Shown here piece after piece: positions 1 through 61,030 of a stretch of 61,030 nucleotides of DNA; the first letter of the stretch is position 1, and every line of letters begins with the position of its first letter. A program made the position numbers and the translations under genes. The stretch covers positions 1-61,030 of IMG/VR virus record IMGVR_UViG_3300025849_000037, one strand, 5' to 3'. The stretch is from a virus (Duplodnaviria > Caudoviricetes). The notes beneath the pieces are model-generated. The model made no database searches, was not told where the DNA came from, and saw only the letters and a list, made by a program, of their open reading frames with translations.

Positions 1-169
1 ATATATATACACACACGCTACGGAATCGAAACGGAAATGGAATCCGAACCCCCCTACCCATGACTGCTGATGATTGGGTCAAATACTTTTAGCTTTTTGG
101 GTCTATGGTCGCAGACTCGCAGCCCCTCATTTAGTCACCCTTGATTTGAGACGTAGTAAAGACGGGGAC
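1..169. repeat. Left copy of 169-bp direct terminal repeat
   Basis: Aligns without gaps to 60862-61030 with 5 substitutions (positions 38, 56, 61, 91, 145). Confidence 0.95.
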
Positions 170-815
170 TATACCACCCCACACAAATACAATTCTAGTA
201 TCTATCCTTCTACGGGGTATCCTATAGACTAGACTAGTCTGCTAATGGGTACACGTTGTTAGTGCCTATGGATAAAGGGCTTTGTGAATAACGTTCGTAC
301 ATATACCATTCTAGGCGATGGCTTCTAGGGGCTATTTGGGGCGCTGTAGCGTAACCATTCTACGGGGGCTGCAGGCTGATTAGGGCGCTCGTATTGGGAC
401 GTTTTTGGATTGGCCCAAGATGACCTTTAATGAAATCTGACTTTTGAAAAAATCGGAGCGCTGTGCGCTAGTAATGGTGGGGGTTAAGGGGGATGGCTGT
501 GAATAAGGTTTGGATAAAAGGGTAGGGTCGGGACAAGGGTAGCTGTATCCCTTGCTATCACTAGGATTGATTAAAGGGTAGGCTTTGACAAGTAATTCCT
601 AGGACATATCCAAACATTTTATACTCTTTTTTTCATGGTATGAATCACTCAATTGTGGTTATTAGTCTGTAGGTATTTTTACTCATGCCGAAAAAACTTC
701 ATAGGTATTTTCACTCATTTTGCATTTCGGGCAAAAAAACTCTGTATCCTAGGCTAGGCTTGGGCTAGAGGGCTCTCCTCGCGCGGGTATCAATAATAGC
801 CGAGAAAGGGGCATG

Positions 816-845
816 TTGCAGGTATCGATAATGGTTGTACATTCG
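816..845 (+). promoter_or_regulatory. Bacteroidota-type housekeeping promoter (-33 TTG, -7 TACATTCG) heading the early region
   Basis: TTGC at 816-819, 19 nt upstream of TACATTCG (838-845), which is one mismatch from TAnnTTTG. Confidence 0.55.
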
Positions 846-849
846 GCTT

Positions 850-1390
850 GTCGAACGGGATGAGATATGAGACTCTTGGCGGAGCACATAAGAAGTATCT
901 ACCCGACCATCGAGGCCGAAAGGCTGACAAGCGCCAAACACATTAACAGCGCAGCCGATGTTGAGCAAGCTAACCTAGAGGAACCAACACCCGAGGGATT
1001 TAATAGCTGCGAACGACCAACCACACGTCCTCTACTAGGTACGGATGGAACACTGAGAGAGCCGCACGGCTTTGCAGCCTGCAGACTCAGTAAGTACAGC
1101 CTACCGAAAGACGAAGAGCCGAACGGATAGAGCGCCTTGGCGCAGGATGCACAACGGAACACGATGAATAGAAAGCGAGCAGCAGCAATGCAGTGAGCAG
1201 TAGTAACCGCTAGTACCGATACCGCAAGAGTCCACAAGTAAGCCCTAGAAACAAGTAAGACGCTGTTGGTTGCTTTGCCCAAAGGATGATGCTGATTGTA
1301 TCGATTGAGCCCGTAGGATGCGCACCAAGGTAGCGCCCCAAAAGACTACGCAATCGAGTGACCCGTAAGCCATCAACCAAGTAGGCATTG
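850..1390 (+). ncRNA. Candidate large structured non-coding RNA (~540 nt)
   Basis: Nested long-range helices 1099-1104/1381-1386, 1135-1144/1319-1330, 1146-1151/1297-1302, 1177-1183/1269-1275, 1190-1195/1261-1266; local stems 973-982/1028-1040 and 1052-1057/1086-1091; A-rich linkers; no convincing ORF. Confidence 0.6.
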
Positions 1391-1400
1391 ACCCATTCCC

Positions 1401-1479
1401 GTGGGGCGCTGAGTAAAGTACATGTTACGCAGAGTATATGTACCGAGACTCACAGCAGGAGCGAGACCTGCCGCCCTAC
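1401..1479 (+). ncRNA. tRNA-like element 1 (acceptor-like stem, long arm, T-like arm)
   Basis: GTGGGGCG/CGCCCTAC stem stacked on GCAGG-AGCGAGA-CCTGC (5 bp with 7-nt loop); inner arm TGAGT..GTACAT/ATGTAC..ACTCA. Confidence 0.6.
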
Positions 1480-1486
1480 CTAACCC

Positions 1487-1509
1487 GAGCCAACCACGGC
1501 TCACAAATT
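1487..1509 (+). promoter_or_regulatory. AACCAC-loop leader hairpin, copy 1
   Basis: GAGCC-AACCAC-GGCTC-ACAAATT, 8 nt before ATG 1518. Confidence 0.8.
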
Positions 1510-1517
1510 GAATCAAA

Positions 1518-1850
1518 ATGACCAACGCTGAAAAATTAATCGCAAGCCTAAGCCCCGTAAACACTAACCTAGATGGCGCACCAATCGTATGCTTAACGGC
1601 AGACCCGTACCTAGGTAAGTTTATGGTTAAGCAGCAGTTCAAACTAAGCCTAGGTAAGCCTACAACGCTGACCACATTGCACGACCCCGAAAGCGGTAGA
1701 CGAATCTTCACGGCACGTGATGAGGAAAGTCACGATGTTGCCGAGGGCGCTATGTCTAAGCTAGACTACGAATGCATGCGTAAATCGGAAGAGAACGCAA
1801 AACTAAGAACAGCATCGGTGGTTGCTCAATTGGGCTTCCTAGGTTGCTAA
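1518..1850 (+). CDS. Hypothetical early protein (110 aa)
   Basis: ATG follows the conserved leader and an A-rich initiation region. Confidence 0.75.
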   Translation: MTNAEKLIASLSPVNTNLDGAPIVCLTADPYLGKFMVKQQFKLSLGKPTTLTTLHDPESGRRIFTARDEESHDVAEGAMSKLDYECMRKSEENAKLRTASVVAQLGFLGC

Positions 1851-1888
1851 TTACCCGTGCTTCCCATAGCGAGGCGGCACGTTATTTA

Positions 1889-1949
1889 AGTGAGGGCAGC
1901 GGTAGACTGAAACAAGGTCTGCGCCTAGGTCGTGCTAGGACTGCTCACT
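1889..1949 (+). ncRNA. tRNA-like three-way-junction element 2
   Basis: P2 GTAGAC-TGAAACAAG-GTCTGC, G, P3 CCTAG-GTCGTG-CTAGG, bulged P1 AGTGAG(GG)CAG/CTGCTCACT. Confidence 0.7.
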
Positions 1950-1956
1950 ATTAATC

Positions 1957-1979
1957 GAGTCAACCACGACTCACAAATT
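1957..1979 (+). promoter_or_regulatory. AACCAC-loop leader hairpin, copy 2
   Basis: GAGTC-AACCAC-GACTC-ACAAATT; compensatory T-A pair relative to copies 1 and 3. Confidence 0.8.
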
Positions 1980-1987
1980 CAATCAAG

Positions 1988-2218
1988 ATGGCTAAAGTCA
2001 CTAGAAGTACTGCAGGCGCTAAGTTCGTCAGCAGCAAAGAAAAATTCAATGGGGCTCAGTTCGCTGAGTTCAACGTGAACGTTAAAGTAAGCAAGGGACG
2101 TGCTGAGCGGTTAGCTATGAAGGCTAGACTAGCTGAGGCTAAGGCTGTCATGGCTTTGCCCGTCAGCGCAGGATTCGTTGAAGTTAAGTCTAACCTAAAT
2201 TTCGCATACGCTGTATGA
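1988..2218 (+). CDS. Hypothetical basic early protein (76 aa)
   Basis: ATG after the conserved leader; coupled to the next ORF by ATGA. Confidence 0.75.
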   Translation: MAKVTRSTAGAKFVSSKEKFNGAQFAEFNVNVKVSKGRAERLAMKARLAEAKAVMALPVSAGFVEVKSNLNFAYAV

Positions 2219-2463
2219 AGAACGCTATAAAAGAAGTCATGTTCGACCTATTGGTGAACGGCTCAGTATCGGAAATGATGAAGACCATGCAGCTAGGTAT
2301 GCAGCATGACGAATACAACATCCGCTTCGTAGCGCAGCTATGTGCAGATGAGGCAGATACTATCGAGGAAGAGGGCGCTATGGTCGCAGACTATCCTAGT
2401 CTAGTTCATAGATGCGAATTGTACGCTGACGTAGTAACATTAATCGTAGATAGCAAGTTATGA
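2215..2463 (+). CDS. Hypothetical protein (82 aa)
   Basis: ATGA-coupled chain of ORFs. Confidence 0.75.
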   Translation: MKNAIKEVMFDLLVNGSVSEMMKTMQLGMQHDEYNIRFVAQLCADEADTIEEEGAMVADYPSLVHRCELYADVVTLIVDSKL

Positions 2464-2651
2464 ATCTAGTGAAACTAACCATAGCTGAAAGGCTAGAGAA
2501 AGAGCAGCTACATGAGGCATACGACCTAAGTAGAGCGTGCGGTGAGTTTAACGTATCCGAGGATATTGCTGAACTGATGTACTGCCCATGCGATGAGTAC
2601 CAAGATTTTCGTGAATCAATAATTAAAGGCCTAAAAGGAGAAAAGTTATGA
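2460..2651 (+). CDS. Hypothetical protein (63 aa)
   Basis: ATGA-coupled chain of ORFs. Confidence 0.7.
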   Translation: MNLVKLTIAERLEKEQLHEAYDLSRACGEFNVSEDIAELMYCPCDEYQDFRESIIKGLKGEKL

Positions 2652-2968
2652 GAGATTTCGTAGTAGGTACGCTACTCATTAGTGGTGGTGTTTGGTTCAG
2701 TCTAGGCTTCGCTTACGCTGACCGAGGCATGCTGCAAGCAGCAGCGGTATTCGGATTGCTAACCGCAGTCTTCTTGGTATGTGAGTTCATATACAATCGC
2801 GTCAAGCCTGCACCGCAGGTAGACGTTAAATGGATAGAAGTTAAACTGCAGGCCGTGCGCCATGGCGATGAGTTCTTCATCAAGAACCTAGAAACGGGCA
2901 CGCTGCGCCCTAGCAGCCGTGACGAAGTTTCCGAGTTATGGAACAAAGGTCAAATCACAATTAAGTAA
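2648..2968 (+). CDS. Hypothetical membrane protein, 2 TM segments (106 aa)
   Basis: Two N-terminal hydrophobic stretches; ATGA coupling. Confidence 0.75.
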   Translation: MRDFVVGTLLISGGVWFSLGFAYADRGMLQAAAVFGLLTAVFLVCEFIYNRVKPAPQVDVKWIEVKLQAVRHGDEFFIKNLETGTLRPSSRDEVSELWNKGQITIK

Positions 2969-2984
2969 TCTAAAACCCAACAAT

Positions 2985-3065
2985 ATGCTAGTAGCAACAT
3001 TAGTACTCACCTTAGTAGGTGCATCGTCTTCATTGGCTGTCGCAGGCCTCAAGTCTAACAAGTAA
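2985..3065 (+). CDS. Small hydrophobic peptide (26 aa, MLVATLVLTLVGASSSLAVAGLKSNK)
   Basis: Read by hand; A-rich leader, fills the gap before element 3. Confidence 0.5.
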   Translation: MLVATLVLTLVGASSSLAVAGLKSNK

Positions 3066-3073
3066 AAAATCAA

Positions 3074-3126
3074 TCTCTATGGCTGACTGCAATAAGGTCA
3101 GCGCCTACATCGTGGTAGGGTAGAGA
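3074..3126 (+). ncRNA. tRNA-like three-way-junction element 3
   Basis: P1 TCTCTAT/GTAGAGA (7 bp), G, P2 GCTGAC-TGCAATAAG-GTCAGC, G, P3 CCTAC-ATCGTG-GTAGG (5 bp) abutting P1. Confidence 0.8.
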
Positions 3127-3136
3127 CCTATTAACC

Positions 3137-3159
3137 GAGCCAACCACGGCTCACAAATT
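3137..3159 (+). promoter_or_regulatory. AACCAC-loop leader hairpin, copy 3
   Basis: GAGCC-AACCAC-GGCTC-ACAAATT before ATG 3167. Confidence 0.8.
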
Positions 3160-3166
3160 TAATTTT

Positions 3167-4528
3167 ATGTCACGTTTTGTAGCAGATGTGTGGGGTGTAG
3201 TAGCACTAGCACTAAATCAAGAAGATTCAAAGGTTCGCAACGTAGCGACCAAGTCTCAAATCCTATTCCGTACAGCAGGTATCAACCATGCAACCACGGG
3301 TAAGATGAGCACTAAGCAAGCCGTAGTGAAAATCAACGCATTAGTTCAAATGCATGTTGAGGCATTCAGCAATGGAAAATTGGGCGGGGAAGACTTAGAA
3401 TGTGTTCACGTTATCGTAGCGTACAAGTCCGATACCGATACACTCATGGTGTACGGGAACAGCGATGATACGCTAGGCGGTAAGCGCTTCGAGGAACTAG
3501 GCGAATACTCAAAATCTAGCGAGAAGAGATTCGGCAAATGGTACTTCAACATGGGGCAATTCCAAGATGCTGTTGCAGTCATGCTAGACCAATCATCAGC
3601 GCCCGAATTAATAGAGGCAGAAACCACAAAAACTGAAACCATGGGACAAACACCACAAGAATTGATGCTGCAGGCTATGAGCATGATGCAGCAAGGCGGC
3701 TCGATAGATGAGGCTGCTGTTGAGAAGATTGTAGACAAGCGTATCAAGGCTCAGTCTGCGACTAAGGTTGAAGTAGTGACAGCTACGGCAGTCAAGAAAG
3801 TAGACAAGGCTCACAAGAACTTTGCTGATGCTGTTGCGCTTGTAGGCCTAGGCAAGAATGTCACGCTGATTGGCGAGGCAGGGAGTGGTAAGTCTTACGG
3901 GGCTATCCAAATGGCTCGAGCGCTAGACCAAGAGTACGCTGTTGTATCATGTCACGGCAAGATGCAGTCGTTTGATTTGGTGGGCGCTATGTCTCCTACA
4001 ACGGGCGAATACATTAGCACTTCGCTACGTGATGCATACGAGAATGGTAAGGTGCTCATCCTCGATGAGTTTGACCGCTCTAACAACGAGACTACCATTG
4101 CGCTCAACGGAATCTTAGCAGGCGATTGCTACGGCTTTCCCGATGGTATGGTGCAGCGCCATGCAGACTTCAAGGTCATCGCATGTCAAAACACTTTCGG
4201 CACGGGTACATCTAAGGTGTACGGCTCAGCTAAGCCGCAGGATGGCTCAACGCTCACACGATTCACACGTGTTGTGTGGGACATCGACAGCAAGCTAGAG
4301 AAAGCTATATGTGGTGATACCCTTGCAACGAACGCTGTGCAGCGCATCCGCTCTAATGCTAAAGGCCTTGGATACGACCAAGTGCTTATCACACCGCGTC
4401 AAGCCATAGATGCTAACCAAATGGTACACAGCCTAGGTTGGTCAGTCAAGAAGGCTATCGAGTTCACTTGTCTCAACGGCCTAGCGGCTGATGTTCGCAA
4501 GAGATTATTGCAGGACGTTTCACTATAA
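3167..4528 (+). CDS. MoxR/CbbQ/CobS-type AAA+ ATPase
   Basis: Walker A GEAGSGKS, Walker B LILDEFDR, FPDG..RHADFKVIACQN, LTRF arginine-finger region. Confidence 0.85.
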   Translation: MSRFVADVWGVVALALNQEDSKVRNVATKSQILFRTAGINHATTGKMSTKQAVVKINALVQMHVEAFSNGKLGGEDLECVHVIVAYKSDTDTLMVYGNSDDTLGGKRFEELGEYSKSSEKRFGKWYFNMGQFQDAVAVMLDQSSAPELIEAETTKTETMGQTPQELMLQAMSMMQQGGSIDEAAVEKIVDKRIKAQSATKVEVVTATAVKKVDKAHKNFADAVALVGLGKNVTLIGEAGSGKSYGAIQMARALDQEYAVVSCHGKMQSFDLVGAMSPTTGEYISTSLRDAYENGKVLILDEFDRSNNETTIALNGILAGDCYGFPDGMVQRHADFKVIACQNTFGTGTSKVYGSAKPQDGSTLTRFTRVVWDIDSKLEKAICGDTLATNAVQRIRSNAKGLGYDQVLITPRQAIDANQMVHSLGWSVKKAIEFTCLNGLAADVRKRLLQDVSL

Positions 4529-4535
4529 CGTTCTT

Positions 4536-4588
4536 AGTCTGCGGCTAACTGAAATAAGGTTAGCGCCTAGGTCATGCTAGGGCAGACT
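4536..4588 (+). ncRNA. tRNA-like three-way-junction element 4
   Basis: P1 AGTCTGC/GCAGACT (7 bp), G, P2 GCTAAC-TGAAATAAG-GTTAGC, G, P3 CCTAG-GTCATG-CTAGG (5 bp). Confidence 0.8.
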
Positions 4589-4597
4589 GCTATTAAC

Positions 4598-4619
4598 GCC
4601 CCAACCACGGGCACAAATT
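4598..4619 (+). promoter_or_regulatory. AACCAC-loop leader hairpin, copy 4
   Basis: GCCCC-AACCAC-GGGC-ACAAATT immediately before ATG 4621. Confidence 0.7.
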
Positions 4620-4620
4620 A

Positions 4621-5517
4621 ATGCTTATGAGATATGAAATAATTGAAGGCAAGCGCATGCTCACCAAGGTGCAGACTACATTCTTTGAGTTTGTAGAGGG
4701 CTCTAATCGTGAGGGAAACGTACACAATTCTTCGGACAGCGATGGCTCTAGTTCGTTTTACGGAAACATCAAGTCCTACCAAGAGATGTACGATGCGTGC
4801 TACAGCGGACTGAATGTCAAGAAGATGATGAAAGCTACCGCAGACTTAAAGAGTCTAGTCAACCATGAGGTTGAGACCCCACGCAAAGCGATAGTAGGTG
4901 AGGCATTCAACGCTGCGGCATTCGCAGCAGGGCATCCTTACCACTACTACAAGGATGCTGATGAGTACGGAAAGCCTAGAGTACACTTAACATACAGCAC
5001 CAACGCTGTTGCAGGTGTACGTTCCGAGCAGTTCATTCGCCATGGCGCTGCACTATGTGCAGTCGCTGATGAGATAGCTGAGCAGGTAGATGTAAAGATT
5101 AGTCTATACATCACTAACGTGGGTGTTCTTGGCGGCAATGGCTGTCAAATAGTGACAATCAAAGACTACAACGAGGTTATCGACATCGCTAGAGTAGCTG
5201 CAACAGCGCATCCTAGTTTCTTTCGTCGCATCGGATTCTCATGGTTCGAGAACGCTAGCAGACTGATAGACTCACGTTGTTCTTCGGGATATGGCGGCTC
5301 TATGACGGGTACTAGCAGAGGGGCAGTCATCAGCGATGAAGAGTTCAAAGAGTGGGTAGGTGCTGCTAACGATGAAATGTTGGTAGACTTTCCTGCGCCC
5401 GATGAAGACCAATTCACGGATGATGACTACACCGCTGAATGGATTGCGAGCGCTATGGAAGACATTAGCGACTCAGTAGAAAAAGATGTTAAACATTGTA
5501 AATTATTTGGACTATGA
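4621..5517 (+). CDS. vWA/CobT-like partner of the AAA+ ATPase
   Basis: Directly downstream of a MoxR-type ATPase; alternating beta/alpha pattern and HPSFFRRIGF motif; MIDAS motif degenerate. Confidence 0.55.
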   Translation: MLMRYEIIEGKRMLTKVQTTFFEFVEGSNREGNVHNSSDSDGSSSFYGNIKSYQEMYDACYSGLNVKKMMKATADLKSLVNHEVETPRKAIVGEAFNAAAFAAGHPYHYYKDADEYGKPRVHLTYSTNAVAGVRSEQFIRHGAALCAVADEIAEQVDVKISLYITNVGVLGGNGCQIVTIKDYNEVIDIARVAATAHPSFFRRIGFSWFENASRLIDSRCSSGYGGSMTGTSRGAVISDEEFKEWVGAANDEMLVDFPAPDEDQFTDDDYTAEWIASAMEDISDSVEKDVKHCKLFGL

Positions 5518-5756
5518 TAGACTTTCATATTCACAAGGTCGGCTACCGAGAACGTTTGGTAGCTGACATCGAAACGGGGCTCATTGGCCGCATCTGCGAC
5601 AAGAACTACAGCGGACTATACGAGGTATGGTTCGAGCGTGAGCCATACCAACAAGACTTCGCTATAGAGAACAGCGAAGAGTACCCACTAGAGACTCAGT
5701 CCGAGTTTCCTAATCGTAAATTCAAAAAAGCTAATCAGTTAATCTTAATCGACTAA
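5514..5756 (+). CDS. Hypothetical protein (80 aa)
   Basis: ATGA coupling. Confidence 0.7.
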   Translation: MIDFHIHKVGYRERLVADIETGLIGRICDKNYSGLYEVWFEREPYQQDFAIENSEEYPLETQSEFPNRKFKKANQLILID

Positions 5757-5766
5757 AACCACTATT

Positions 5767-5970
5767 ATGAAAAATGCAATTTCTTACGACTTCGGGTCGT
5801 TAAACATCCAATCATTCTTTGATTCTGCTACGGGTGTAGCTAAGTCTGTCATCCGTTGGGATGGCGCTGCTATGGATACGCTGACTTACTCAGCTAACGA
5901 TGCAGACGATGCAGTAGACAAGGCTGTACGCTTTGCGACTGAGCGTGCTCAATTAGAATTGATAGGGTAA
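5767..5970 (+). CDS. Hypothetical protein (67 aa)
   Basis: ORF in the early gene chain. Confidence 0.7.
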   Translation: MKNAISYDFGSLNIQSFFDSATGVAKSVIRWDGAAMDTLTYSANDADDAVDKAVRFATERAQLELIG

Positions 5971-6149
5971 TGAGTATTAATAGAGAAATGTTCTTAGCGT
6001 ACGAGGCAGTACGTGAGAGCGGTTACTACAACATGTTCGATAGACGAGCATTAGACCTAGCTAACGAGATGAATGACCTAAGCATGGACATCGGTCAATG
6101 GTCGTTCATTATCACTAACTATGACAAACTTAAAAAGACTTACCTATGA
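5970..6149 (+). CDS. DUF5049-like small protein (59 aa)
   Basis: Read by hand: MSINREMFLAYEAVRESGYYNMFD...; TAATG and ATGA coupling on either side. Confidence 0.7.
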   Translation: MSINREMFLAYEAVRESGYYNMFDRRALDLANEMNDLSMDIGQWSFIITNYDKLKKTYL

Positions 6150-6364
6150 ATTTCCAAGTAAGAGTTCCCGTGATTATCACTAGGACATTGCGCACACATG
6201 TGACGATAGACCTAGACGATGAGCAGTTCGATAAGTTCATCACCGACCAAATCCTTATAACGAATCAAGACGAGTTAGAGGATTTATATTACAGCCAATT
6301 CAATGAGGAAGACTTCTTCGAAGAGAGTCTAATCTTTGAGGTTGAGGATGCTTACGAGCATTAA
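6146..6364 (+). CDS. Hypothetical acidic protein (72 aa)
   Basis: ATGA coupling; very D/E-rich. Confidence 0.7.
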   Translation: MNFQVRVPVIITRTLRTHVTIDLDDEQFDKFITDQILITNQDELEDLYYSQFNEEDFFEESLIFEVEDAYEH

Positions 6365-6431
6365 GCGTGTATGGTACTCTTGTCCGAGCATGGCTCCAAG
6401 AGGTAGGGCGGTTCGATTCCGCCCCACGCTA
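6364..6431 (+). ncRNA. tRNA-like element 5 with canonical T-loop and no D or anticodon arm
   Basis: AGCGTG/CACGCT stacked on GGGCGG-TTCGATT-CCGCCC; TATGGT linker; single arm CTCTTG..GAGC-ATG-GCTC..CAAGAG. Confidence 0.7.
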
Positions 6432-6458
6432 CACAGCGAACGTTCACTATAACGTTCC

Positions 6459-6511
6459 GCTCTCAATGACCTTGCAAGCATGTGGTTATGACGCGCAAGT
6501 AGAGAGCACCA
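6459..6511 (+). ncRNA. Minihelix-like hairpin ending in ACCA
   Basis: GCTCTC/GAGAGC stem followed directly by ACCA (6508-6511); inner CTTGC/GCAAG stem. Confidence 0.45.
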
Positions 6512-6537
6512 TATTTAAATTCATAAATACAATTATC

Positions 6538-6960
6538 ATGATTGAAACAAAAGAAGGATTGCTAGAGTATTGGACAGAACAATCTCTACCCCAAGGAACA
6601 GCAGAGAACATCCATTGGCTAAGACATAGCTGTGATGCTTTCTTCTTAGACAAGGGCTACCGCCCATTGAATTACCCACACAGCGATGCGTTTCAAACGT
6701 ATCACAACCCCAAGGGCAACAAGGCTGTTAGAGTAAATATAGCGAGGACATTCGATGACTCGTTGCTAGGCAATGAGAATTGGATTATAGTAGAGGCTAG
6801 AGGCAACACTTATGTAGCGCCCTACAATGCTGCTAGAGACATGGGTGTGATTACGAGTATTAGAGGCATGTACTTTACAGACTCGTCTAACTCAACCGCA
6901 GAAGACTTAATTAAATCAACTGAAATACTAATAGATAATAATTTAGCCTATGAAATTTGA
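6538..6960 (+). CDS. Hypothetical protein (140 aa; start moved from 6367 to ATG 6538)
   Basis: AT-rich initiation region before 6538; the upstream part of the ORF is occupied by RNA structures. Confidence 0.7.
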   Translation: MIETKEGLLEYWTEQSLPQGTAENIHWLRHSCDAFFLDKGYRPLNYPHSDAFQTYHNPKGNKAVRVNIARTFDDSLLGNENWIIVEARGNTYVAPYNAARDMGVITSIRGMYFTDSSNSTAEDLIKSTEILIDNNLAYEI

Positions 6961-7342
6961 TGACATCTTTAGCCCTCAAGAAAGTACCGAGGGAACAACA
7001 ATTACAGACTTCTTTGGGGTCGATACCGACAAGATGGTATCGTGGGTCAAGGACGTTGTAAAACTCAGCAGACAAGAAGACGTTCTAGATACCGACATCG
7101 TGATAGCGGCCATGGCTGTCACGGAGACTAAAGAGGAACTAGCTGTCTTGCAACACTTGGTGCTGAAGGCTACCATGAGTGAGATAATGTCTACCGCAGA
7201 TGAGTCTGCTAGACTACTAGATTGGACTCGTGAGGCACTTGAAAACATGAGTGAAGAGGCGCAGGCTCAGTACGCTGAGTTCATGGTCGGGAAACTCTTA
7301 GAGAACGGAGATATTAACTTCGAAGATTTTGATGACGAGTAG
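6950..7342 (+). CDS. Hypothetical acidic protein (130 aa)
   Basis: ORF overlapping the previous stop codon. Confidence 0.75.
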   Translation: MKFDDIFSPQESTEGTTITDFFGVDTDKMVSWVKDVVKLSRQEDVLDTDIVIAAMAVTETKEELAVLQHLVLKATMSEIMSTADESARLLDWTREALENMSEEAQAQYAEFMVGKLLENGDINFEDFDDE

Positions 7343-7391
7343 TTACTTAGTAACTCACACGTGTACGTATACGCACTATGAATATATATAT

Positions 7392-7430
7392 GTAATCTCT
7401 TCTCCCTTATAGGGGAGAAGAAGAGATTAC
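7392..7430. other. Long intergenic hairpin in an AT-rich, palindrome-rich spacer
   Basis: GTAATCTCTTCTCCCT-TATA-GGGGAGAAGAAGAGATTAC. Confidence 0.55.
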
Positions 7431-7457
7431 TCAAGATAATAACTTAAATTAATACCT

Positions 7458-7829
7458 ATGACAGACTTAATTGGATTGTATGGAATCGTGGTAGACCCTA
7501 TTGAGGGAGTATCAATTAGACACTTGCCGAATGGTCGTGCTAGTCTAAACGAATTGTATTCTATTATCGACTGCGACTATGTTGAGCTATCAGTTCTTAC
7601 TGATGAGCTAGACCTATTTGTAGACGAGGAAGGATTGGTTAACGGGGCTGCACAGCGTGTAGGCTGTTTCCAAGTTCAAGATGCAGATGGCGAGAGACTA
7701 GGGCAGGTCATGTATGCAGGACGTGGTGTAATACTACAGAATGCTGAGGATGACAGCGTAGGATTCACTAGGCAGAGAGCCACGGCAATAGTAGAATCTT
7801 TAACATTTCAAGGCATGGCCGTCTTGTAA
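7458..7829 (+). CDS. DUF3846-like protein
   Basis: LY..IDCDYVE and LFVDEEGL motifs. Confidence 0.7.
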   Translation: MTDLIGLYGIVVDPIEGVSIRHLPNGRASLNELYSIIDCDYVELSVLTDELDLFVDEEGLVNGAAQRVGCFQVQDADGERLGQVMYAGRGVILQNAEDDSVGFTRQRATAIVESLTFQGMAVL

Positions 7830-7876
7830 ATCCTGCCGCCACTTTGTATATTAGTAGTAACCAACAACAACAACAT

Positions 7877-8473
7877 ATGAGTAAATTAAATTCAGCACTC
7901 ATCGCAGTGCAATCCCAACTGAAAGCGCCAAAGAATCAGCGCAACAACTTCGGCAAGTACAACTATCGTAGTGCCGAGGATATCCTAGAGGCTGTCAAGC
8001 CTTTACTATCTGCTAACGGACTATCAATGACAATCAGCGACTCAGTAGAGGAACTAGGCGGCATGGTCGTAATCACATCTTCGGTTGTAGTTACGGATGG
8101 TACGGATTCAGTAACAGCATCTGCACAAGCAGGGGTTGACCCGAATCGCAAAGGTATGGACATCGCTCAGTCTTTCGGCTCATCTAGTTCTTACGCTCGT
8201 AAGTACGCAATGAACGGCATGTTCCTAATCGACGATACCAAGGATGCTGACGCTACCAACACACATGGTAACAACTCAGCAATTAAATCCACACCTGCGC
8301 CTCGTGCTACATCAGCACCGAGTGCAGCAAAGGACAGCGATTGGTTCAGCAAGTCTATCGACTACATCAAGTCTGCTAGCGACAAAGGTCAAGCATACGA
8401 GATGGTAATCAGTAAGTACGGCACGTCTGCGTCCGAGAAGCAGATTGCAGCACTTCAAAAGTTCTTAGGTTAA
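7877..8473 (+). CDS. erf: ERF-family single-strand annealing protein
   Basis: LKAPKNQRNNFGKYNYRSAEDILEAVKP and QSFGSSSSYARKYA..DDTKDAD motifs. Confidence 0.9.
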   Translation: MSKLNSALIAVQSQLKAPKNQRNNFGKYNYRSAEDILEAVKPLLSANGLSMTISDSVEELGGMVVITSSVVVTDGTDSVTASAQAGVDPNRKGMDIAQSFGSSSSYARKYAMNGMFLIDDTKDADATNTHGNNSAIKSTPAPRATSAPSAAKDSDWFSKSIDYIKSASDKGQAYEMVISKYGTSASEKQIAALQKFLG

Positions 8474-9273
8474 TGCAGTTTGCATCTGCACTACAAGAGA
8501 AAACGGGGAAGGGGTACGTAAGTGCCTCTTCTCTTAAATATGCAGTACCTACTTCCAAAGACTTCGACATGATGGCTTGGGAACTGAACATGAAAGGTGA
8601 ACTCAAGAAGACGGGTAAGCACTTCACGTTTGGTGGTCTGTATGACATGCTCTTACTTGAGCCCGATAATGTTTGGGACAAGTATATCGTTCTAAAGGAC
8701 GAAGAGATTTGCGCTGAGATTGGCGGTAAGAACCCACGTGCTACGAAAAGGTACAAAGAGTGGGCAGCCGAGCAGCAAGGGGACAAGGAACTAATCTCAT
8801 GGGTAGAATACAATACAGCTAAGGTGATGGTCAAGAGACTACGCGACAGCGAGGTTGTAGACTACAGCACGGGTGAGGTTGTGAGTCTGTCTCAGTTCAT
8901 TCAAGGTGAGCCGCAGAAGGAGTTCAACTCTTGGATAGGAGATGTGCCCGTACGAGGCTTCCTAGACGTTCTAGGGGACGGATTCATTACTGATGTAAAG
9001 ACTACCCGTAGCATGAAGGCATTCAAGTACGATGTGTTCGATTTGAACTACGACTTGCAGGCTTACATCTACTGCGAGGTATTCAACATCAAAGACTTCT
9101 ATTGGTTGGCGCAAGTTAAGGACAAGCCTTATACATGTGCATTGATTAAAGCGTCCGAAGAAACTCTTGCGAGAGGCAAGGATAAGTTCGAGACTGCTGT
9201 TAGTAACATTGAGCAATGGTTAATTACAGAGCCCAAGGCAACTGAGACATTCGCTCTACAATACACTTTATAA
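8473..9273 (+). CDS. PD-(D/E)XK exonuclease, RecE/ExoVIII-like (DUF3799)
   Basis: SASSLK, RGFLD..DVKTT and YDLQAYIY motifs; adjacent to erf. Confidence 0.8.
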   Translation: MQFASALQEKTGKGYVSASSLKYAVPTSKDFDMMAWELNMKGELKKTGKHFTFGGLYDMLLLEPDNVWDKYIVLKDEEICAEIGGKNPRATKRYKEWAAEQQGDKELISWVEYNTAKVMVKRLRDSEVVDYSTGEVVSLSQFIQGEPQKEFNSWIGDVPVRGFLDVLGDGFITDVKTTRSMKAFKYDVFDLNYDLQAYIYCEVFNIKDFYWLAQVKDKPYTCALIKASEETLARGKDKFETAVSNIEQWLITEPKATETFALQYTL

Positions 9274-9641
9274 TGAACATGTACAGACTTCAATTAGCAA
9301 TGCGTTATATACGCAGATTATTCACGGGCACAAAAAGTTTTTCTAAGTCCGACTTGCAATTCATTGTTGAATCCGTTAATAGTATATACGGCATCGACTT
9401 ATCGTCACCACAACATGGACATAAGCAGGCTCAAGTTAAACAAGCGCTAGTAGCTTTCCTAGATGAGAGCGGTGAGTACAAGACAGACACAGAGATGACC
9501 AACGCACTAGTAAGTGCAGGTGTTGCATCAAGAGGCTTTAGCCGACGTAATGTCACTCACATGATTAATACTCTAGGAAAAGAGATTACAGACTTAAATG
9601 TCTATCGTGAGTTTAAGAAGAATGTTAATTCAGTACTTTAA
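9273..9641 (+). CDS. Hypothetical protein, possible helical DNA-binding domain
   Basis: TAATG coupling; weak resemblance to DnaA C-terminal-like proteins. Confidence 0.6.
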   Translation: MNMYRLQLAMRYIRRLFTGTKSFSKSDLQFIVESVNSIYGIDLSSPQHGHKQAQVKQALVAFLDESGEYKTDTEMTNALVSAGVASRGFSRRNVTHMINTLGKEITDLNVYREFKKNVNSVL

Positions 9642-9665
9642 TTTTAATTTAATAAATAATCAATT

Positions 9666-9980
9666 ATGAGTAACTATCAAAACAACAACCCACTAGTAGG
9701 ATTCGTTAATGCACCACGTGTAGAAATCCGTGTATCATTCACCGAGGCAGAGTTAAACGACATGCGTCAGTACTTAACGGGTAAAGACACTAAGCGTGTT
9801 TACTTGACAATCAAAACGGGCGAGAAGAAAGACAAGAGCGGTACATACCAAATCGCATCAGTCTATGACCCTAGCGCTAACCAACAAGGTTCGCAAGCGT
9901 CTCAGTCTTACGCTCAAAAGCAAGGCGCTCCTGCACCTAGCCAAGCTAACGCAACGGCAGGTGGAGATTTACCATTCTAA
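9666..9980 (+). CDS. Putative single-stranded DNA-binding protein
   Basis: Small beta-rich domain, Q/A/P-rich linker, C-terminal GDLPF. Confidence 0.7.
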   Translation: MSNYQNNNPLVGFVNAPRVEIRVSFTEAELNDMRQYLTGKDTKRVYLTIKTGEKKDKSGTYQIASVYDPSANQQGSQASQSYAQKQGAPAPSQANATAGGDLPF

Positions 9981-10013
9981 ATTAGGATATCTTAATTTAA
10001 TGTATTACATTTG

Positions 10014-10044
10014 TGCCCCTGCTAGAAATAGTGGGGGCATTTTT
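10014..10044 (+). terminator. Intrinsic terminator-like hairpin
   Basis: TGCCCCTGCTA-GAAA-TAGTGGGGGCA-TTTTT; TACATTTG lies just upstream (10006-10013). Confidence 0.6.
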
Positions 10045-10046
10045 AC

Positions 10047-10128
10047 GGGGGTGTATGGTGGGTGATACCTAAAACAATTGTGTAAGTCTTTGGGTGTTGC
10101 GGAAGTTCGACTCTTCCCTCCCTCACTA
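10047..10128 (+). ncRNA. tRNA-like element 6 with canonical T-loop (shaped like the tRNA-like domain of tmRNA)
   Basis: GGGGGTG/CTCCCTC (7 bp, one mismatch) stacked on GGAAG-TTCGACT-CTTCC; the same GTGTATGGT as element 5; ends ACTA. Confidence 0.7.
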
Positions 10129-10145
10129 ATTTAATTAAACAACAT

Positions 10146-10742
10146 ATGAAAAATCTAATCTTAGGTGCTGCTGCGGCAGCCCTGCTCGCTTGTGAGCCAA
10201 TAGAAATCAATACTACTGACGCAATCTGTTTACGCTACGAGGCATGGACTAACAACGTCGAGGTAGCATCGGGCGAAATCAACGCTATTACACTCAGTCA
10301 AAAGAATAGTCTAGTAGACAGCATTGGTGTTCACTATAACGCTGATTCTGTTTGGGCTGAAACATTCTTCTGCATCGAGGAACAAGGCTTACCTACTGAG
10401 GGTGAGGTTTGGTACAGCGTCACACTCAAGGATGTTCAGTATTCGGGATGGGCAGGCGGTTGGGATGGCGACACGTGCATCGAAGACCTTTGCTTATTCG
10501 CATTCGACAATGGAGTTATGACTACGTTAGATACGGGGATGTATATTATAGACTTCCCAATCCTAGGTAACCAATGGACGGGGAACATTCAGTTCGCAAT
10601 TCAAAACAACATCGACTCTCTTGTCATCGGCGGCGAGGCTTGGGGATACGATAAGATTGGCGGTAAACACACGCTCAACAGACTCACAGACTACCACGGC
10701 ATGGGTAGTCAAGTAACAACTCTAATCCTTACAGAACTATGA
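10146..10742 (+). CDS. Lipoprotein (possible superinfection exclusion)
   Basis: Signal peptide II MKNLILGAAAAALLA-C, with acidic residues after the Cys. Confidence 0.75.
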   Translation: MKNLILGAAAAALLACEPIEINTTDAICLRYEAWTNNVEVASGEINAITLSQKNSLVDSIGVHYNADSVWAETFFCIEEQGLPTEGEVWYSVTLKDVQYSGWAGGWDGDTCIEDLCLFAFDNGVMTTLDTGMYIIDFPILGNQWTGNIQFAIQNNIDSLVIGGEAWGYDKIGGKHTLNRLTDYHGMGSQVTTLILTEL

Positions 10743-11089
10743 TAACAGATAAAGCACTTACACAAGTCCTTGCTATGCATTTGTATAGCGAGGGTATGGG
10801 CGAGGTTTCCGACATTACGGAGACTACGTTTTGGATTGAGGGGCAGCGCAAGAACAAGGTTGAGGTTCACTCGGCTATGCTTGGAAACAAGATTGACTTC
10901 AGCGCCTGCTGCTTATGTTGCGACTTCGTTCTGCTCAGTCTGTTAGACAAGACGGGCGACAATGTGATTCTGTTGCCTACTGATAAACTCAAGGCCGTTA
11001 TGACAGACAACAACGTATCTCTAGTAGATATGGCTGAGTTCATAATCTATCGTTGGGCTGTAGAGTTCCTACCTGCTAGTGTCGCTTAA
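10739..11089 (+). CDS. Hypothetical protein (116 aa)
   Basis: ATGA coupling. Confidence 0.7.
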   Translation: MITDKALTQVLAMHLYSEGMGEVSDITETTFWIEGQRKNKVEVHSAMLGNKIDFSACCLCCDFVLLSLLDKTGDNVILLPTDKLKAVMTDNNVSLVDMAEFIIYRWAVEFLPASVA

Positions 11090-11303
11090 CCTAGAGGCTG
11101 CTACAGACTTGTTAATCTTTAAGGCTCTCATACATTCCGAGACGCAAAAAGATGCAGCCAAGGCACTAGGTATGACACCAAGGAATCTACAACTAATCAA
11201 GAAGAAAAAACCTTTAATATGGACAAGCGCACAATATACTCGTACGTTATTGAAGTCAAATACAAAAAGGGTAAAGCATTCGTCAACAAGCAAATGTCAA
11301 TAG
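11079..11303 (+). CDS. Small HTH protein (Fis-like)
   Basis: TQKDAAKALGMTPRNL helix-turn-helix pattern; GTG start. Confidence 0.55.
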   Translation: MSLNLEAATDLLIFKALIHSETQKDAAKALGMTPRNLQLIKKKKPLIWTSAQYTRTLLKSNTKRVKHSSTSKCQ

Positions 11304-11494
11304 TCTCGGTGGCTAAGACAGCCATGGAGATGAACAACATACCACGAGTAGTACGGGCTCTTCAAGCGGAGATATTCGGACATAAGTCTGCGGCCTACAA
11401 GAGTAACGCTAAGAACTTATGGGTCACTAAGATAATATCTAGTATAGAGGTCGGTAAATCTTTTTACTACACGGACGAAAATTATAAATTATGA
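11219..11494 (+). CDS. Hypothetical protein (91 aa)
   Basis: ATG start; ATGA-coupled to the next gene. Confidence 0.65.
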   Translation: MDKRTIYSYVIEVKYKKGKAFVNKQMSIVSVAKTAMEMNNIPRVVRALQAEIFGHKSAAYKSNAKNLWVTKIISSIEVGKSFYYTDENYKL

Positions 11495-12204
11495 TTCTAA
11501 CTAAGAATAGAATGGTGGAGTTCTTTCCATCGGACAATCGCTACCTGCATTACGTTGCTCGAAAGAACGGTCTGTTCTTCATCAACGATGACGATGTGGA
11601 GTCTGCGAGGTTCTTTGCTATCGAGGCTGTTATGCGGCTAGTCAGTAAGGAAGTAGAGTACGAGGACGAGAAGCACTTGCAGAGCGTAGTGCAGATGAAT
11701 GTCCTGCGTGCTATCTATCGCATGATAGAATGGAATAGCGCTAAGAAAAACTCACAAGACATACGCAGCGAGTCTGAGTTCATCGGAAGTGATGATGACG
11801 GATTCTCTACGTATATCGAGTTAGCTGAGTCGGATGACAAACCATACGACAACACAATGGCTATCATCGAGGAGTACGCTCAAGAGGTGCTAGACGATAT
11901 CGGCTATGCCGTTTACAAAATGACTTTATCCGACGTTGCAAGAAAGGATATGGCTGAGACATTGGGTATATCGCCCGAAGCTATTCGCCAAAGACAAAAG
12001 AGCAACGTTAAAAAACTAAAACTAAAATACGACAGAGATGAGAATGACAAAGAAAGTTTTCGAGAGAATCGTAGAAAGATACGTGACAGAATACGACGTA
12101 AACCCATTGCAGAAAACAAGGCAACGGAACGTGCTAGTGCCGAGGCAAACGCTTTTCTACATACTCAATACGAAATTCCATATTCACTTCCAAACATTGA
12201 GTGA
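11491..12204 (+). CDS. Sigma-70/ECF-like transcription factor
   Basis: Region-2-like N-terminal half (DDVES..AIEAV..L) and region-4 HTH KDMAETLGISPEAIRQR..KKLK. Confidence 0.7.
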   Translation: MILTKNRMVEFFPSDNRYLHYVARKNGLFFINDDDVESARFFAIEAVMRLVSKEVEYEDEKHLQSVVQMNVLRAIYRMIEWNSAKKNSQDIRSESEFIGSDDDGFSTYIELAESDDKPYDNTMAIIEEYAQEVLDDIGYAVYKMTLSDVARKDMAETLGISPEAIRQRQKSNVKKLKLKYDRDENDKESFRENRRKIRDRIRRKPIAENKATERASAEANAFLHTQYEIPYSLPNIE

Positions 12205-12478
12205 TTGGACGGGTTGGGATAGAAGCATTGGCTACCACAGCGTTGAGCAGGTCAACAACGGGCTAGATATTAAGTCTGCAGAGTACACCGATGAGATTAA
12301 CAAGTGGGCATTAGTCTTCACTGCCTTAGACGGAATCATCAAGGTCAAGGCTCAAATCAAAGAGGATGAGGCTGTCAGTGCTGAGGCTAGTATAATTAAG
12401 TTTCTAACCAAGTTTGACACAACCACATCACTTGATATATTATATAACGTAGTAAACACATTGCGCAATGACAGATAA
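12038..12478 (+). CDS. DnaA C-terminal-like HTH protein
   Basis: KTRQRNVLVPRQTLFYIL..LSDWTGWDRS..YHSV pattern. Confidence 0.6.
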   Translation: MRMTKKVFERIVERYVTEYDVNPLQKTRQRNVLVPRQTLFYILNTKFHIHFQTLSDWTGWDRSIGYHSVEQVNNGLDIKSAEYTDEINKWALVFTALDGIIKVKAQIKEDEAVSAEASIIKFLTKFDTTTSLDILYNVVNTLRNDR

Positions 12479-12944
12479 AGAAAGAAAAGCAACCAAGATA
12501 TTTCAAGGTGTGCTCATGTACTTTCCAAATGCTTTGTCCGAGGTTGCACGATGCAGCGCTCGCAGTAACGCACAGCACAACGGAGAGGATGCACCACTCT
12601 ATTGGGACATGGACAAGTCTAAGGATGAGTTAGGCAGTCTAACGCGTCACCTAGTAGACTTAGCTTCGGGAGAGGAATACGATGAGGACGGCACGCTAAA
12701 CATTGCAAAGATTGCATGGCGAGCCCTTGGCGCACTAGAGCGTCACCTAACGGGCGATGAGTCCTTTGAGAATGAAAACTTTTATAAAGAATTAAAACAA
12801 CCACAACATGGCGAAGAAAGAACCGAGAGTAACGATGTTTCAGTCAGTGTTCAAGACGGACAAGCCGTATCATATAACCCTTACGACTGCGCTACAACGC
12901 ATAGCGGAGGGGTCATCCAAGGATACGATTCAAGCCGTACGTGA
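12468..12944 (+). CDS. dATP/dGTP diphosphohydrolase-like protein (DUF5664)
   Basis: GVL.YFPNAL.EVA..S..SN.QHN...L.WD..KS.D....L.RHL...IAWRAL..L pattern. Confidence 0.75.
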   Translation: MTDKERKATKIFQGVLMYFPNALSEVARCSARSNAQHNGEDAPLYWDMDKSKDELGSLTRHLVDLASGEEYDEDGTLNIAKIAWRALGALERHLTGDESFENENFYKELKQPQHGEERTESNDVSVSVQDGQAVSYNPYDCATTHSGGVIQGYDSSRT

Positions 12945-15952: not shown

Positions 15953-15979
15953 TCTAATCCTATCTTAATTTAATCTATT

Positions 15980-16714: not shown

Positions 16715-16812
16715 TGCTTATCTTAATTTATTACTCAGTAGTAGCAGCCGTGGGTGTTCTCATGGGCGCTACGCTGTGGTACATAGAAAAGTATTGGAAA
16801 CATGATAGCTGA
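16714..16812 (+). CDS. Small TM peptide (32 aa)
   Basis: Read by hand: MLILIYYSVVAAVGVLMGATLWYIEKYWKHDS; TAATG coupling. Confidence 0.5.
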   Translation: MLILIYYSVVAAVGVLMGATLWYIEKYWKHDS

Positions 16813-17614: not shown

Positions 17615-17648
17615 TTTCGTATATTTGAAGGCTCTTGAGATTAACTAG

Positions 17649-17671
17649 GGGGATGCGAAAGCGTCCCCTTT
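17649..17671 (+). terminator. Intrinsic terminator
   Basis: GGGGATGC-GAAA-GCGTCCCC-TTT. Confidence 0.7.
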
Positions 17672-18507: not shown

Positions 18508-18517
18508 TGTTCACTAT

Positions 18518-18568
18518 AACTATGTCGCAGCTATAGAGGCTGTGCGAGTTCATGACTCGGGCATAGTT
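18518..18568 (+). ncRNA. tRNA-like three-way-junction element 7
   Basis: P1 AACTATGTC/GGCATAGTT, P2 GCAGC-TATAGAG-GCTGT, G, P3 CGAGT-TCATG-ACTCG abutting P1. Confidence 0.65.
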
Positions 18569-18623: not shown

Positions 18624-18656
18624 AGAAAGGGGGCTTAATTGCCCCCATTTCTTTTT
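18624..18656. terminator. Bidirectional terminator between convergent blocks
   Basis: AGAAA-GGGGGC-TTAATT-GCCCCC-ATTTCTTTTT. Confidence 0.75.
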
Positions 18657-60861: not shown

Positions 60862-61030
60862 ATATATATACACACACGCTACGGAATCGAAACGGAAACG
60901 GAATCCGAACCCCCCTCCCCACGACTGCTGATGATTGGGTCAAATACTTTTGGCTTTTTGGGTCTATGGTCGCAGACTCGCAGCCCCTCATTTAGTCACC
61001 CTTGAATTGAGACGTAGTAAAGACGGGGAC
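60862..61030. repeat. Right copy of 169-bp direct terminal repeat
   Basis: Matches 1-169 with 5 substitutions. Confidence 0.95.

Follow-up and report, generated by a model that had tools for sequence, protein, structure and literature searches.

The early region of the phage genome record IMGVR_UViG_3300025849_000037 (Duplodnaviria; Caudoviricetes) contains three small three-way junctions that show different stems and common loops, and the question raised by this locus is what such a structure does between early genes. The record was analysed at its full length of 61,030 bp, referred to here as the window, and represents a whole phage genome with a 169-nucleotide (nt) direct repeat at both ends. 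The three junctions, named class A, are a clean, covariation-supported new RNA family that is absent from Rfam 15, and they form one subclass of a modular set of structured elements present in every early intergenic region of the clade. The family that holds class A is transfer RNA (tRNA)-like, since some of the elements that occupy the same intergenic slots in sister phages carry canonical T-arms. Tentatively, and at somewhat short of an even chance, we propose that class A is a tRNA-precursor mimic read by host tRNA end-processing enzymes, which would punctuate the early RNA.

Structure of the class A junctions

Each class A junction is ~53 nt long (1894-1946, 3074-3126 and 4536-4588; Table 1) and contains three stems, P1, P2 and P3. 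A repeat search groups the three copies as one family. On the + strand, RNAfold gives the identical three-way junction as the minimum-energy fold of all three copies, with -30.6, -31.4 and -32.6 kcal/mol and z scores of -2.6, -3.9 and -2.8 for copies 1, 2 and 3, respectively. The - strand shows the junction for copy 3 alone and weaker z scores (-1.7, -2.6 and -1.8). A previous reading made from the sequence alone (the sequence-only reading) had described three-way junctions at these sites of the + strand, and the stems and loops that it quoted are correct. It had also described single-G linkers, which copy 1 does not show: the inner end of its P1 carries a C-A mismatch, which makes the junction looser and does away with the single-G linker. 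The other quoted details stand. P1 does differ between the copies, as had been noticed, and the P1 of copy 1, GGGCAG/CUGCUC (one G.U pair), was missing from the earlier list.

Homologues and covariation

A covariance model built from the three window copies (R1) finds only these copies in the window with filters off, and the next best match has 10.4 bits. Relatives were collected via the ATPase gene located between copies 2 and 3, which gave five IMG/VR loci (59-96% identity) and 17 metagenome loci; the related phage loci used for comparison are designated by L-numbers (L003, L005, L037, etc.). R1 shows 33 matches, 23 of them distinct, all on the + strand and in the 22 sources of related phage DNA and the window; 29 matches have 62-86 bits and four have 39-42 bits. 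In the alignment of the 23 distinct sequences, 99.5% of 432 cells pair, 14 of the 19 pairs show double-sided changes and all seven P1 pairs covary, in agreement with the clear covariation claimed before. The paired percentage, the count of double-change cells and the covariation score are reached by none of 500 shuffled controls and the count of double-change pairs by 28, and controls with slid partners are 32-42% paired. These figures lean towards structure because the alignment is model-fitted and the sequences are kin. The presence of three wholly different P1 sequences in one genome, and of others elsewhere, leaves little doubt about the fold. Many pairs are U.G and would be A.C if read on the other strand (20/20 in column 20/33, 9/23 in column 11/57, 5/23 in column 6/62 and 4/23 in column 15/38), which places the structure on the sense strand.

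The conservation of both loops noted in the sequence-only reading extends to the homologues: the P3 loop is RUCRUG in 23 of 23 distinct sequences and the P2 loop is U-G-N-R-A-Y-A-W-G in 20 of 23. These 20 P2 loops never vary at U1 or A5, and they have A or C at N3 and A or G at R4. In the other three distinct sequences (four matches), P2 is swapped for a plain hairpin of 4-5 bp without this loop. The first base of the P3 loop (G/A) tracks the orientation of the closing pair (G-C/C-G) in 23 of 23, across differing backgrounds of neighbouring pairs. Class A loops are strongly kept among phages whose flanking ATPase is only ~60% identical. No covariation was found by eye in the R1 alignment between the variable positions of the P2 and P3 loops, including a candidate contact between P2-loop position 3 and P3-loop position 1. 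A candidate pseudoknot of copy 1, between the P3 loop GUCGUG and the hairpin sequence CACGAC, was rejected because the complementarity is not maintained, being lost in copy 3 and in other GUCAUG sequences.

A 20-base degenerate pattern of the two loops matches only five related contigs (six stretches) in IMG/VR, and in 596 Gb of bacterial genomes it shows eight scattered matches, none of them a full-length R1 match. Looser loop patterns are unspecific (six matches against 4.3 expected, and 20 mostly single matches), and a generic three-way-junction descriptor is too permissive, with 11 matches in 19 kb and spurious ones that mask known copies. Rfam 15 shows no match at the gathering threshold in the whole window, its riboswitches and self-cleaving ribozymes included, and at E up to 10 in region 1400-4700 it gives only two matches, to unrelated eukaryotic families and outside the elements. 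The phage sequence is present in marine metagenomes, and the system is limited to one small uncultured marine clade of 5 or 6 IMG/VR and 17 metagenome contigs.

Sibling elements and interchangeable slots

Class A elements are always intercistronic, with their 5' edge 8-40 nt past a stop codon and their 3' edge 26-38 nt short of the following AUG. On their 3' side they show, in order, N-CUA, a short A/U-rich linker ending in UAAYC, a hairpin of 4-5 bp, ACAAAU and, ~10 nt on, the AUG. ACCAC is the end of the hairpin loop in this downstream module. After two class A elements, a stemless CCAC-UAAAAU takes the place of this hairpin. All 56 occurrences of the ACCAC module in 18 sources (176 kb) are on the sense strand, in 45 distinct contexts; each genome contains 4-6 modules, which are confined to the early region and closely precede a start codon in every case. 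The stems of the module covary (GAGCC/GGCUC, GACCC/GGGUC, GAGUC/GACUC, GCCC/GGGC, GAGC/GCUC and one U.G pair) and, in IMG/VR, its pattern is found in this clade only. The ACCAC module could be an early promoter or a 5' leader element. Among the elements that precede 44 distinct ACCAC modules, 12 plus two variants are class A, 12 are T-arm elements, seven are class B and seven are class E; four were left unclassified by regular expressions and are B-like or E-like by eye. Class A is therefore one of several junction classes, which makes the label "subclass" of the sequence-only reading appropriate.

T-arm elements were identified from a scan for 5-bp stems around TTC[GA]ANN, which gave 30 occurrences on the sense strand against five on the antisense strand; the intergenic ones of TTCGA type are all sense. 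Ten of these elements align as AGCRUAU-AUGGUA-N-[T stem-UUCGANU-T stem]-CUAYGCU-A-C-U-A. They contain stems of 6 + 6 bp, and AUGGU, UUCGA.U and the A-C that follows P1 are invariant. In this alignment, 96.7% of cells pair and seven of 12 pairs show double changes. AUGGU contains a GG like that of the D-loop and could supply the partners G18-G19. A covariance model of the T-arm elements (R2) gives 28 matches, all on the + strand and 16 of them strong. Its weak matches in the window are at 6398-6436 (class C) and 10090-10130 (class D), and its matches in Cellulophaga phage phi40:1 fall within the tRNA gene cluster. The class A element was not found in phi40:1 or in Flavobacterium phage elemoF with R1 and R2.

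The window contains further members of the set (Table 1). P1 and P3 of class B covary with their counterparts in L003 and L005. The T-arms of classes C and D are GGTTCGATTCC and GGAAGTTCGACTCTTCC, and neither receives a tRNA call from ARAGORN or Rfam. The class D fold is insignificant on energy alone (z -0.45), its R2 score is 14.8 bits (E 0.7), and a terminator-like hairpin (10012-10045) lies just before it. Possible class F scores 10.4 bits (E 1.2) with R1. Class E shows P1 GGGUAG or GGAUAG, a P2 with a triloop and a P3 with a loop of UUCAAGG type. The exact 11-mer TTCACTATAAC is present four times in the window, always on the + strand (4519-4529, 6443-6453, 10330-10340 and 18510-18520), and in three of the four copies it is a hairpin loop next to a junction element, with stems that covary in relatives. 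Its core, TCACTATA, shows a putative resemblance to the core of T7-group promoters.

Table 1. Positions and main traits of the structured elements of the window (ORF, open reading frame).
Element	Position	Strand	Structure	Location
Class A copy 1 and N-CUA	1894..1950	+	P1 1894-1900/1940-1946, P2 1902-1922, P3 1924-1939; P2 loop UGAAACAAG, P3 loop GUCGUG; A-CUA 1947-1950	137-nt gap between ORF 1518-1850 and ORF 1988-2218
Class A copy 2 and N-CUA	3074..3130	+	P1 3074-3080/3120-3126, P2 3082-3102, P3 3104-3119; P2 loop UGCAAUAAG, P3 loop AUCGUG; C-CUA 3127-3130	Upstream of AAA ATPase gene 3167-4528
Class A copy 3 and N-CUA	4536..4592	+	P1 4536-4542/4582-4588, P2 4544-4564, P3 4566-4581; P2 loop UGAAAUAAG, P3 loop GUCAUG; G-CUA 4589-4592	8 nt past the ATPase stop codon; upstream of DUF7192 gene 4621-5517
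Class B three-way junction	1401-1479 (with module 1401..1509)	+	P3 GCAGG-AGCGAGA-CCUGC flush with P1 3' strand, then CUA-ACC	
Class C three-way junction	6364-6430 (region 6364..6462)	+	AUGGUA after P1 5' strand; canonical T-arm GGGCGG-UUCGAUU-CCGCCC flush with P1 3' strand; then hairpin with UUCACUAUAA loop	Before AUG 6466
Class D junction	10047..10124	+	T-arm GGAAG-UUCGACU-CUUCC flush with P1 3' strand, then A-CUA	
Possible class F, weakest member	18518..18568	+	P2 CAGC-UAUAG-GCUG like class A variants; P3 GCGAG-UUCAUGA-CUCG	
ACCAC-loop hairpin	1487-1502 (module 1487-1509)	+	Hairpin and ACAAAUU	After class B; before first gene 1518-1850
ACCAC-loop hairpin	1957..1979	+	GAGUC-AACCAC-GACUC and ACAAAUU	After copy 1 via UUAAUC linker; 9 nt before AUG 1988
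ACCAC-loop hairpin	3137..3159	+	GAGCC-AACCAC-GGCUC and ACAAAUU	After copy 2
ACCAC-loop hairpin	4598..4619	+	GCCC-CAACCAC-GGGC and ACAAAUU	After copy 3
Hairpin with UCACUAUAA loop	4510..4535	+	Stem covaries in relatives; z -3.1	Holds ATPase stop codon; directly 5' of copy 3

The same intergenic slot holds different classes in different phages. The slot upstream of the ATPase gene contains class A in the window, L034 and L045 (L045:989), class E in 11 of the 15 sources listed, and elements with a canonical UUCGANU T-arm in L005 and L037. The slot downstream of this gene contains class A in six of 12 sources. In L004, L005 and L037 it shows a two-arm minihelix, with an acceptor-like stem and a T-arm of GGGGG-UUCGAGU-CCCCC type, and in L038-L040 a plain hairpin and A-CUA, with CCAC-UAUU leading straight into the AUG. 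The slot elements are followed by N-CUA (ACAA in three T-arm cases) and, except in L038-L040, by the ACCAC hairpin module. The idea of a unique fold defined by its loops does not survive this comparison, given the three distinct sequences with a plain P2 and the alternative occupants of the slots: another junction, a minihelix or a plain hairpin. Ligand binding, also suggested in the sequence-only reading, finds no support: hardly any conserved base of the junction is unpaired, and the copies precede different genes.

Resemblance to tRNA

The geometry of class A is constant in all 23 distinct sequences: P1 has 7 bp, P3 has 5 bp, and P3 is flush with the P1 3' strand, with no linker. By eye, P1 is not extendable in ~19 of the 23. 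This arrangement is that of an acceptor/T minihelix, with a stack of ~12 bp and no 3' linker. P1 is followed by N-C-U-A in 23 of 23, a CCA-less 3' flank like that of a tRNA precursor. Real tRNA genes with such flanks are present in the cultured relative phi40:1 (KC821612.1, ~35.5-38.9 kb), where 17 of the 18 tRNA genes called by ARAGORN show a C after the discriminator and then never a second C. The base after that C is T in nine genes, A in five and G in three, and CCA is not encoded. From these N-C-notC flanks it follows that the hosts must mature the precursors by an endonuclease and then by CCA addition. Since N-C-U-A matches N-C-notC, the window elements share the flank of real tRNA genes in the same host group. 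The regularity found in phi40:1 may bear on 3' processing in Flavobacteriia.

According to PMC4810234, the T-loop pentaloop contains a reverse Hoogsteen pair between U1 and A5, variable positions 2-4 and an intercalation gap. The P2 loop of class A, U-G-N-R-A with U1 and A5 invariant, fits this definition at the sequence level, and the siblings show UUCGANU together with AUGG. However, the class A candidate sits in the 9-nt loop of a side arm and not on the arm stacked on P1, and covariation indicates no intercalation partner. The elements also resemble the tRNA-like domain of transfer-messenger RNA (tmRNA) and acceptor/T-arm minihelices, in which an acceptor stem is combined with a T-arm, the D region is reduced and an anticodon arm is missing. 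The Rfam models of tmRNA match only the 17-nt T-arms of the siblings, far below the gathering scores, and leave class A unmatched; moreover, the window elements show neither an mRNA-like domain nor an encoded CCA. Apart from these 17-nt T-arms, Rfam gives chance-level matches at E up to 10 in regions 5500-8000 and 9000-12900 and at E up to 1 in four relatives. ARAGORN gives a single doubtful call in 16 relatives, a 93-nt tRNA-Tyr in L005. The tRNA mimicry proposed in the sequence-only reading thus gains from the canonical T-arms in orthologous slots of sister phages, from the flush stack of 7 + 5 bp and from the N-C-U-A flank, and loses from the failure of class A in direct tRNA tests.

Proposed role as tRNA-like punctuation

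In the proposed mechanism, the three elements would be transcribed as sense-strand RNAs and would mimic one half of a tRNA precursor, that of the acceptor stem and T-arm. P1 (7 bp) would stack on P3 (5 bp) to give the 12-bp helix of a tRNA minihelix, P2 would be an extra arm with a T-loop-like pentaloop that may form a surface resembling the elbow, and the N-C-U-A after P1 would imitate the discriminator and the 3' flank of a CCA-less tRNA gene. Ribonuclease (RNase) P would cut at the 5' edge of P1, and the cut after the discriminator would be made by RNase Z or an endonuclease like it. The early polycistronic RNA would thereby be split into units: the upstream message would end at or in a stable structure, and the downstream message would have its 5' end a few bases upstream of the ACCAC-loop hairpin, which is followed by the A-rich start region. 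The cleavage, the enzymes involved and the fate of the ends are what we infer from the likeness to tRNA precursors. PMC4810234 describes RNase P and RNase Z as recognising the elbow and the acceptor/T stack and not the sequence. The same review describes other RNAs that borrow these enzymes for end formation, and long non-coding RNAs (lncRNAs) that recruit RNase P.

Several observations weigh against this proposal. The canonical T-loop (UUCRANN) is not found on P3 of class A, whose loop is the 6-nt RUCRUG, and the R2 model does not match class A. ARAGORN finds no tRNA genes in the window, and Rfam shows no tRNA or tmRNA match to class A (no match of the tRNA clan at E up to 10 in 1400-4700). 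The expression data consist of Logan contigs of four RNA-labelled runs over positions 1-6000, of low depth and with unreadable ends, in which uncovered parts are uninformative. No transcript end is seen in these contigs, and contig X19 (1834-2006) spans copy 1 intact, which corresponds to an uncut form or to DNA carry-over. The plain hairpin and A-CUA that occupy one slot in L038-L040 indicate that the tRNA shape is not obligatory. The fixed class A loops amid changing stems are unexplained by punctuation alone. The near-obligatory coupling to the ACCAC module suggests a composite function, which could be transcriptional. Finally, TAnnTTTG is absent from the + strand before 10006. This sequence is the Bacteroidota promoter element, and the motif family ...TGCAAATATAC... 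of the + strand, found before many genes of the leftward block, gives this element when read on the coding strand.

Alternative explanations

The ACCAC hairpin and ACAAAU may form an early promoter, either as an extruded hairpin or through an unusual polymerase or sigma factor, with the junction as the stable 3' end of the preceding transcript, which would stop the polymerase or hold back 3' exonucleases and would not involve tRNA enzymes. We regard this explanation as doubtful. The early genes need some other promoter because TAnnTTTG is missing before 10006, and this absence, together with the lack of an excess of sigma-70-type promoters, makes the ACCAC hairpin a candidate: a scan for the latter gave 38 sites against 33 expected, none of them at ACCAC modules. 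The ACCAC module is also a block of ~30 nt conserved in sequence with a covarying stem, on one strand only and just before start codons, its leftmost copy has no upstream gene, and a plain hairpin can occupy the junction slot. Short conserved hairpins before early genes, at the left end of a terminally redundant podovirus-like genome, recall coliphage N4, whose virion RNA polymerase uses hairpin promoters with a 3-nt loop. The likeness concerns the ACCAC module and not the junction, and the ACCAC loop has 5-7 nt in contrast to the 3 nt of N4. The U.G stem pair found in L037 favours the ACCAC hairpin as RNA. A study of phi14:2 (bioRxiv 10.1101/2020.03.07.982082) describes early transcripts of its virion polymerase without a common upstream motif, and it gives no precedent either way for an ACCAC promoter.

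An ACCAC promoter requires a hairpin-reading polymerase or factor, and no phage RNA polymerase was found in the window. The large ORFs show no RNA-polymerase match in Pfam or PHROGs, and neither DxDxD nor T7-type polymerase motifs were found with regular expressions. A six-frame search for PF00940 gave no match, and it is uninformative because its controls were equally silent. A search of the ESM Atlas gave no polymerase lead (best score 0.83). A 2833-aa ORF (19065-27566, - strand), which adjoins a muzzle-like gene and contains an HExxH motif (YHEGFH at ~residue 805), shows no Pfam, PHROG or PDB sequence match. Its homologues are only 29 giant proteins without annotation, whose pairwise likeness is located in the HExxH region and a C-terminal block. 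The AlphaFold model of its residues 1290-2190 is almost all helix, with low confidence (predicted local distance difference test, pLDDT, of 57.7). As for the junctions, they have no U-run (the tail is CUAUUAAC, with at most three U), and intrinsic-terminator prediction marks none of them. A generic stable hairpin would leave the T-loops of the siblings, AUGG and N-C-U-A unexplained.

A second alternative, which we hold to be unlikely, is a cis-acting RNA bound by a phage or host factor. It could mediate antitermination as lambda nut and HK022 put do, or act on translation of the gene located 26-38 nt downstream, as an operator or enhancer. Sequence-specific recognition would lead one to expect conserved loops on covarying stems, as seen here; the distance to the AUG is fixed, and the element recurs before each early transcription or translation unit. 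Nevertheless, unrelated loop sets are found in the same slot of sister phages, which disfavours one sequence-specific binder, and no candidate RNA-binding protein was identified among the early ORFs, which are mostly without family matches. The antitermination RNAs nut and put are compact cis-acting stem-loops repeated in early operons. The window elements are located instead at cistron ends, immediately before start codons.

A further reading, improbable in our estimation, is that the clade has made interchangeable tRNA mimics the basis of all its early-gene expression, and that the junctions of ~55 nt excised by RNase P and RNase Z, with their fixed T-loop-like and RUCRUG loops, persist as tRNA-shaped small RNAs that act in trans. 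They could serve as decoys for the ribosome, for a defence nuclease directed at tRNA, for a modification enzyme or for some other host factor that recognises the tRNA elbow. Their tRNA-like shape, flanks that would permit excision and the strong conservation of class A loops in spite of the divergence of the ATPase are consistent with such RNAs. On the other side, the slots hold different classes, no anticodon-like loop is present and the low-depth RNA-library contigs show no sign of accumulation. Least probable is a structure of single-stranded DNA, for instance a cruciform close to a promoter or a signal for replication or priming: DNA tolerates G.T pairs and the phage encodes a primase-helicase, but the elements are strictly sense-strand, strictly intercistronic and adjoin start codons, the T-loop, AUGG and N-C-U-A are features of tRNA precursors, and the complementary strand would have A.C mismatches.

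Genome organisation

The terminal repeat of the window (1-169 and 60862-61030) is direct, with 97% identity over 169 nt. The record probably represents a complete, terminally redundant genome, or else a circular assembly that was opened at the repeat. Genes are directed rightward up to ~18.5 kb, and those from 19 kb onwards, as far as the right end, are directed leftward. The rightward block contains small ORFs and genes encoding the AAA ATPase, the DUF7192 protein, Erf, an exonuclease, a sigma-like protein, the primase-helicase and a resolvase. The leftward block contains genes encoding the portal protein, the large terminase, tail-fibre-like proteins and a protein with the crAss muzzle domain, as well as the 2833-aa ORF. 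A structural protein is ~31% identical to proteins of phi40:1 (Pervagoviridae) and of Flavobacterium Elemovirus phages.

Region 1-1400 shows a single doubtful ORF of 87 aa (867-1130), blocks that are also conserved in L003 and L005, and, near 680-720, tandem copies of TAGGTATTTT(T/C)ACTCAT. The RNA-library contigs cover 215-449, 697-889 and 1009-1310 of this left end, which may be a structured non-coding RNA or a control region. The motif TCTTAATTTAAT is located before later rightward genes (9990-10001, 15963-15974, 16721-16732 and 9642-9653; two exact and two with one mismatch) and may be a middle-class promoter, for which the sigma-like ORF 11491-12204 could be the matching factor. Terminator-like hairpins with T-runs are found at 10012-10045, 17647-17670 and 18629-18646, where the first long rightward operon ends and where the rightward and leftward genes converge. 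The hairpin at 18629-18646 reads as a terminator on either strand.

Relation to known systems

In mitochondria, tRNA punctuation provides tRNA-like processing signals in long transcripts. The t-elements of plant mitochondria (PMC1920247) are likewise tRNA-like processing signals. The elements of the window resemble these signals, and those of lncRNAs, in the acceptor/T-arm-like stack located between coding units and in the CCA-less 3' flank, and sister phages contain versions with a canonical T-arm. Cleavage has been demonstrated in those systems, whereas here it is a proposal, and class A shows neither a canonical T-loop nor a D-loop. The setting is also different, being the early operon of a double-stranded DNA phage with a Bacteroidota-type host.

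No description of tRNA-like punctuation in a phage was found in the literature searched, part of which was accessible only in part. Mitochondria, plant organelles and a few long RNAs of eukaryotes are the known settings of such punctuation. If the proposal is true, class A would represent tRNA punctuation in a bacteriophage, with host tRNA-maturation enzymes borrowed to cut and stabilise the early messages. The signals for early-gene expression are poorly defined in Bacteroidota phages, and this reading would help there. The sibling classes found in the same slots are a natural experiment on which features of the tRNA shape are needed.

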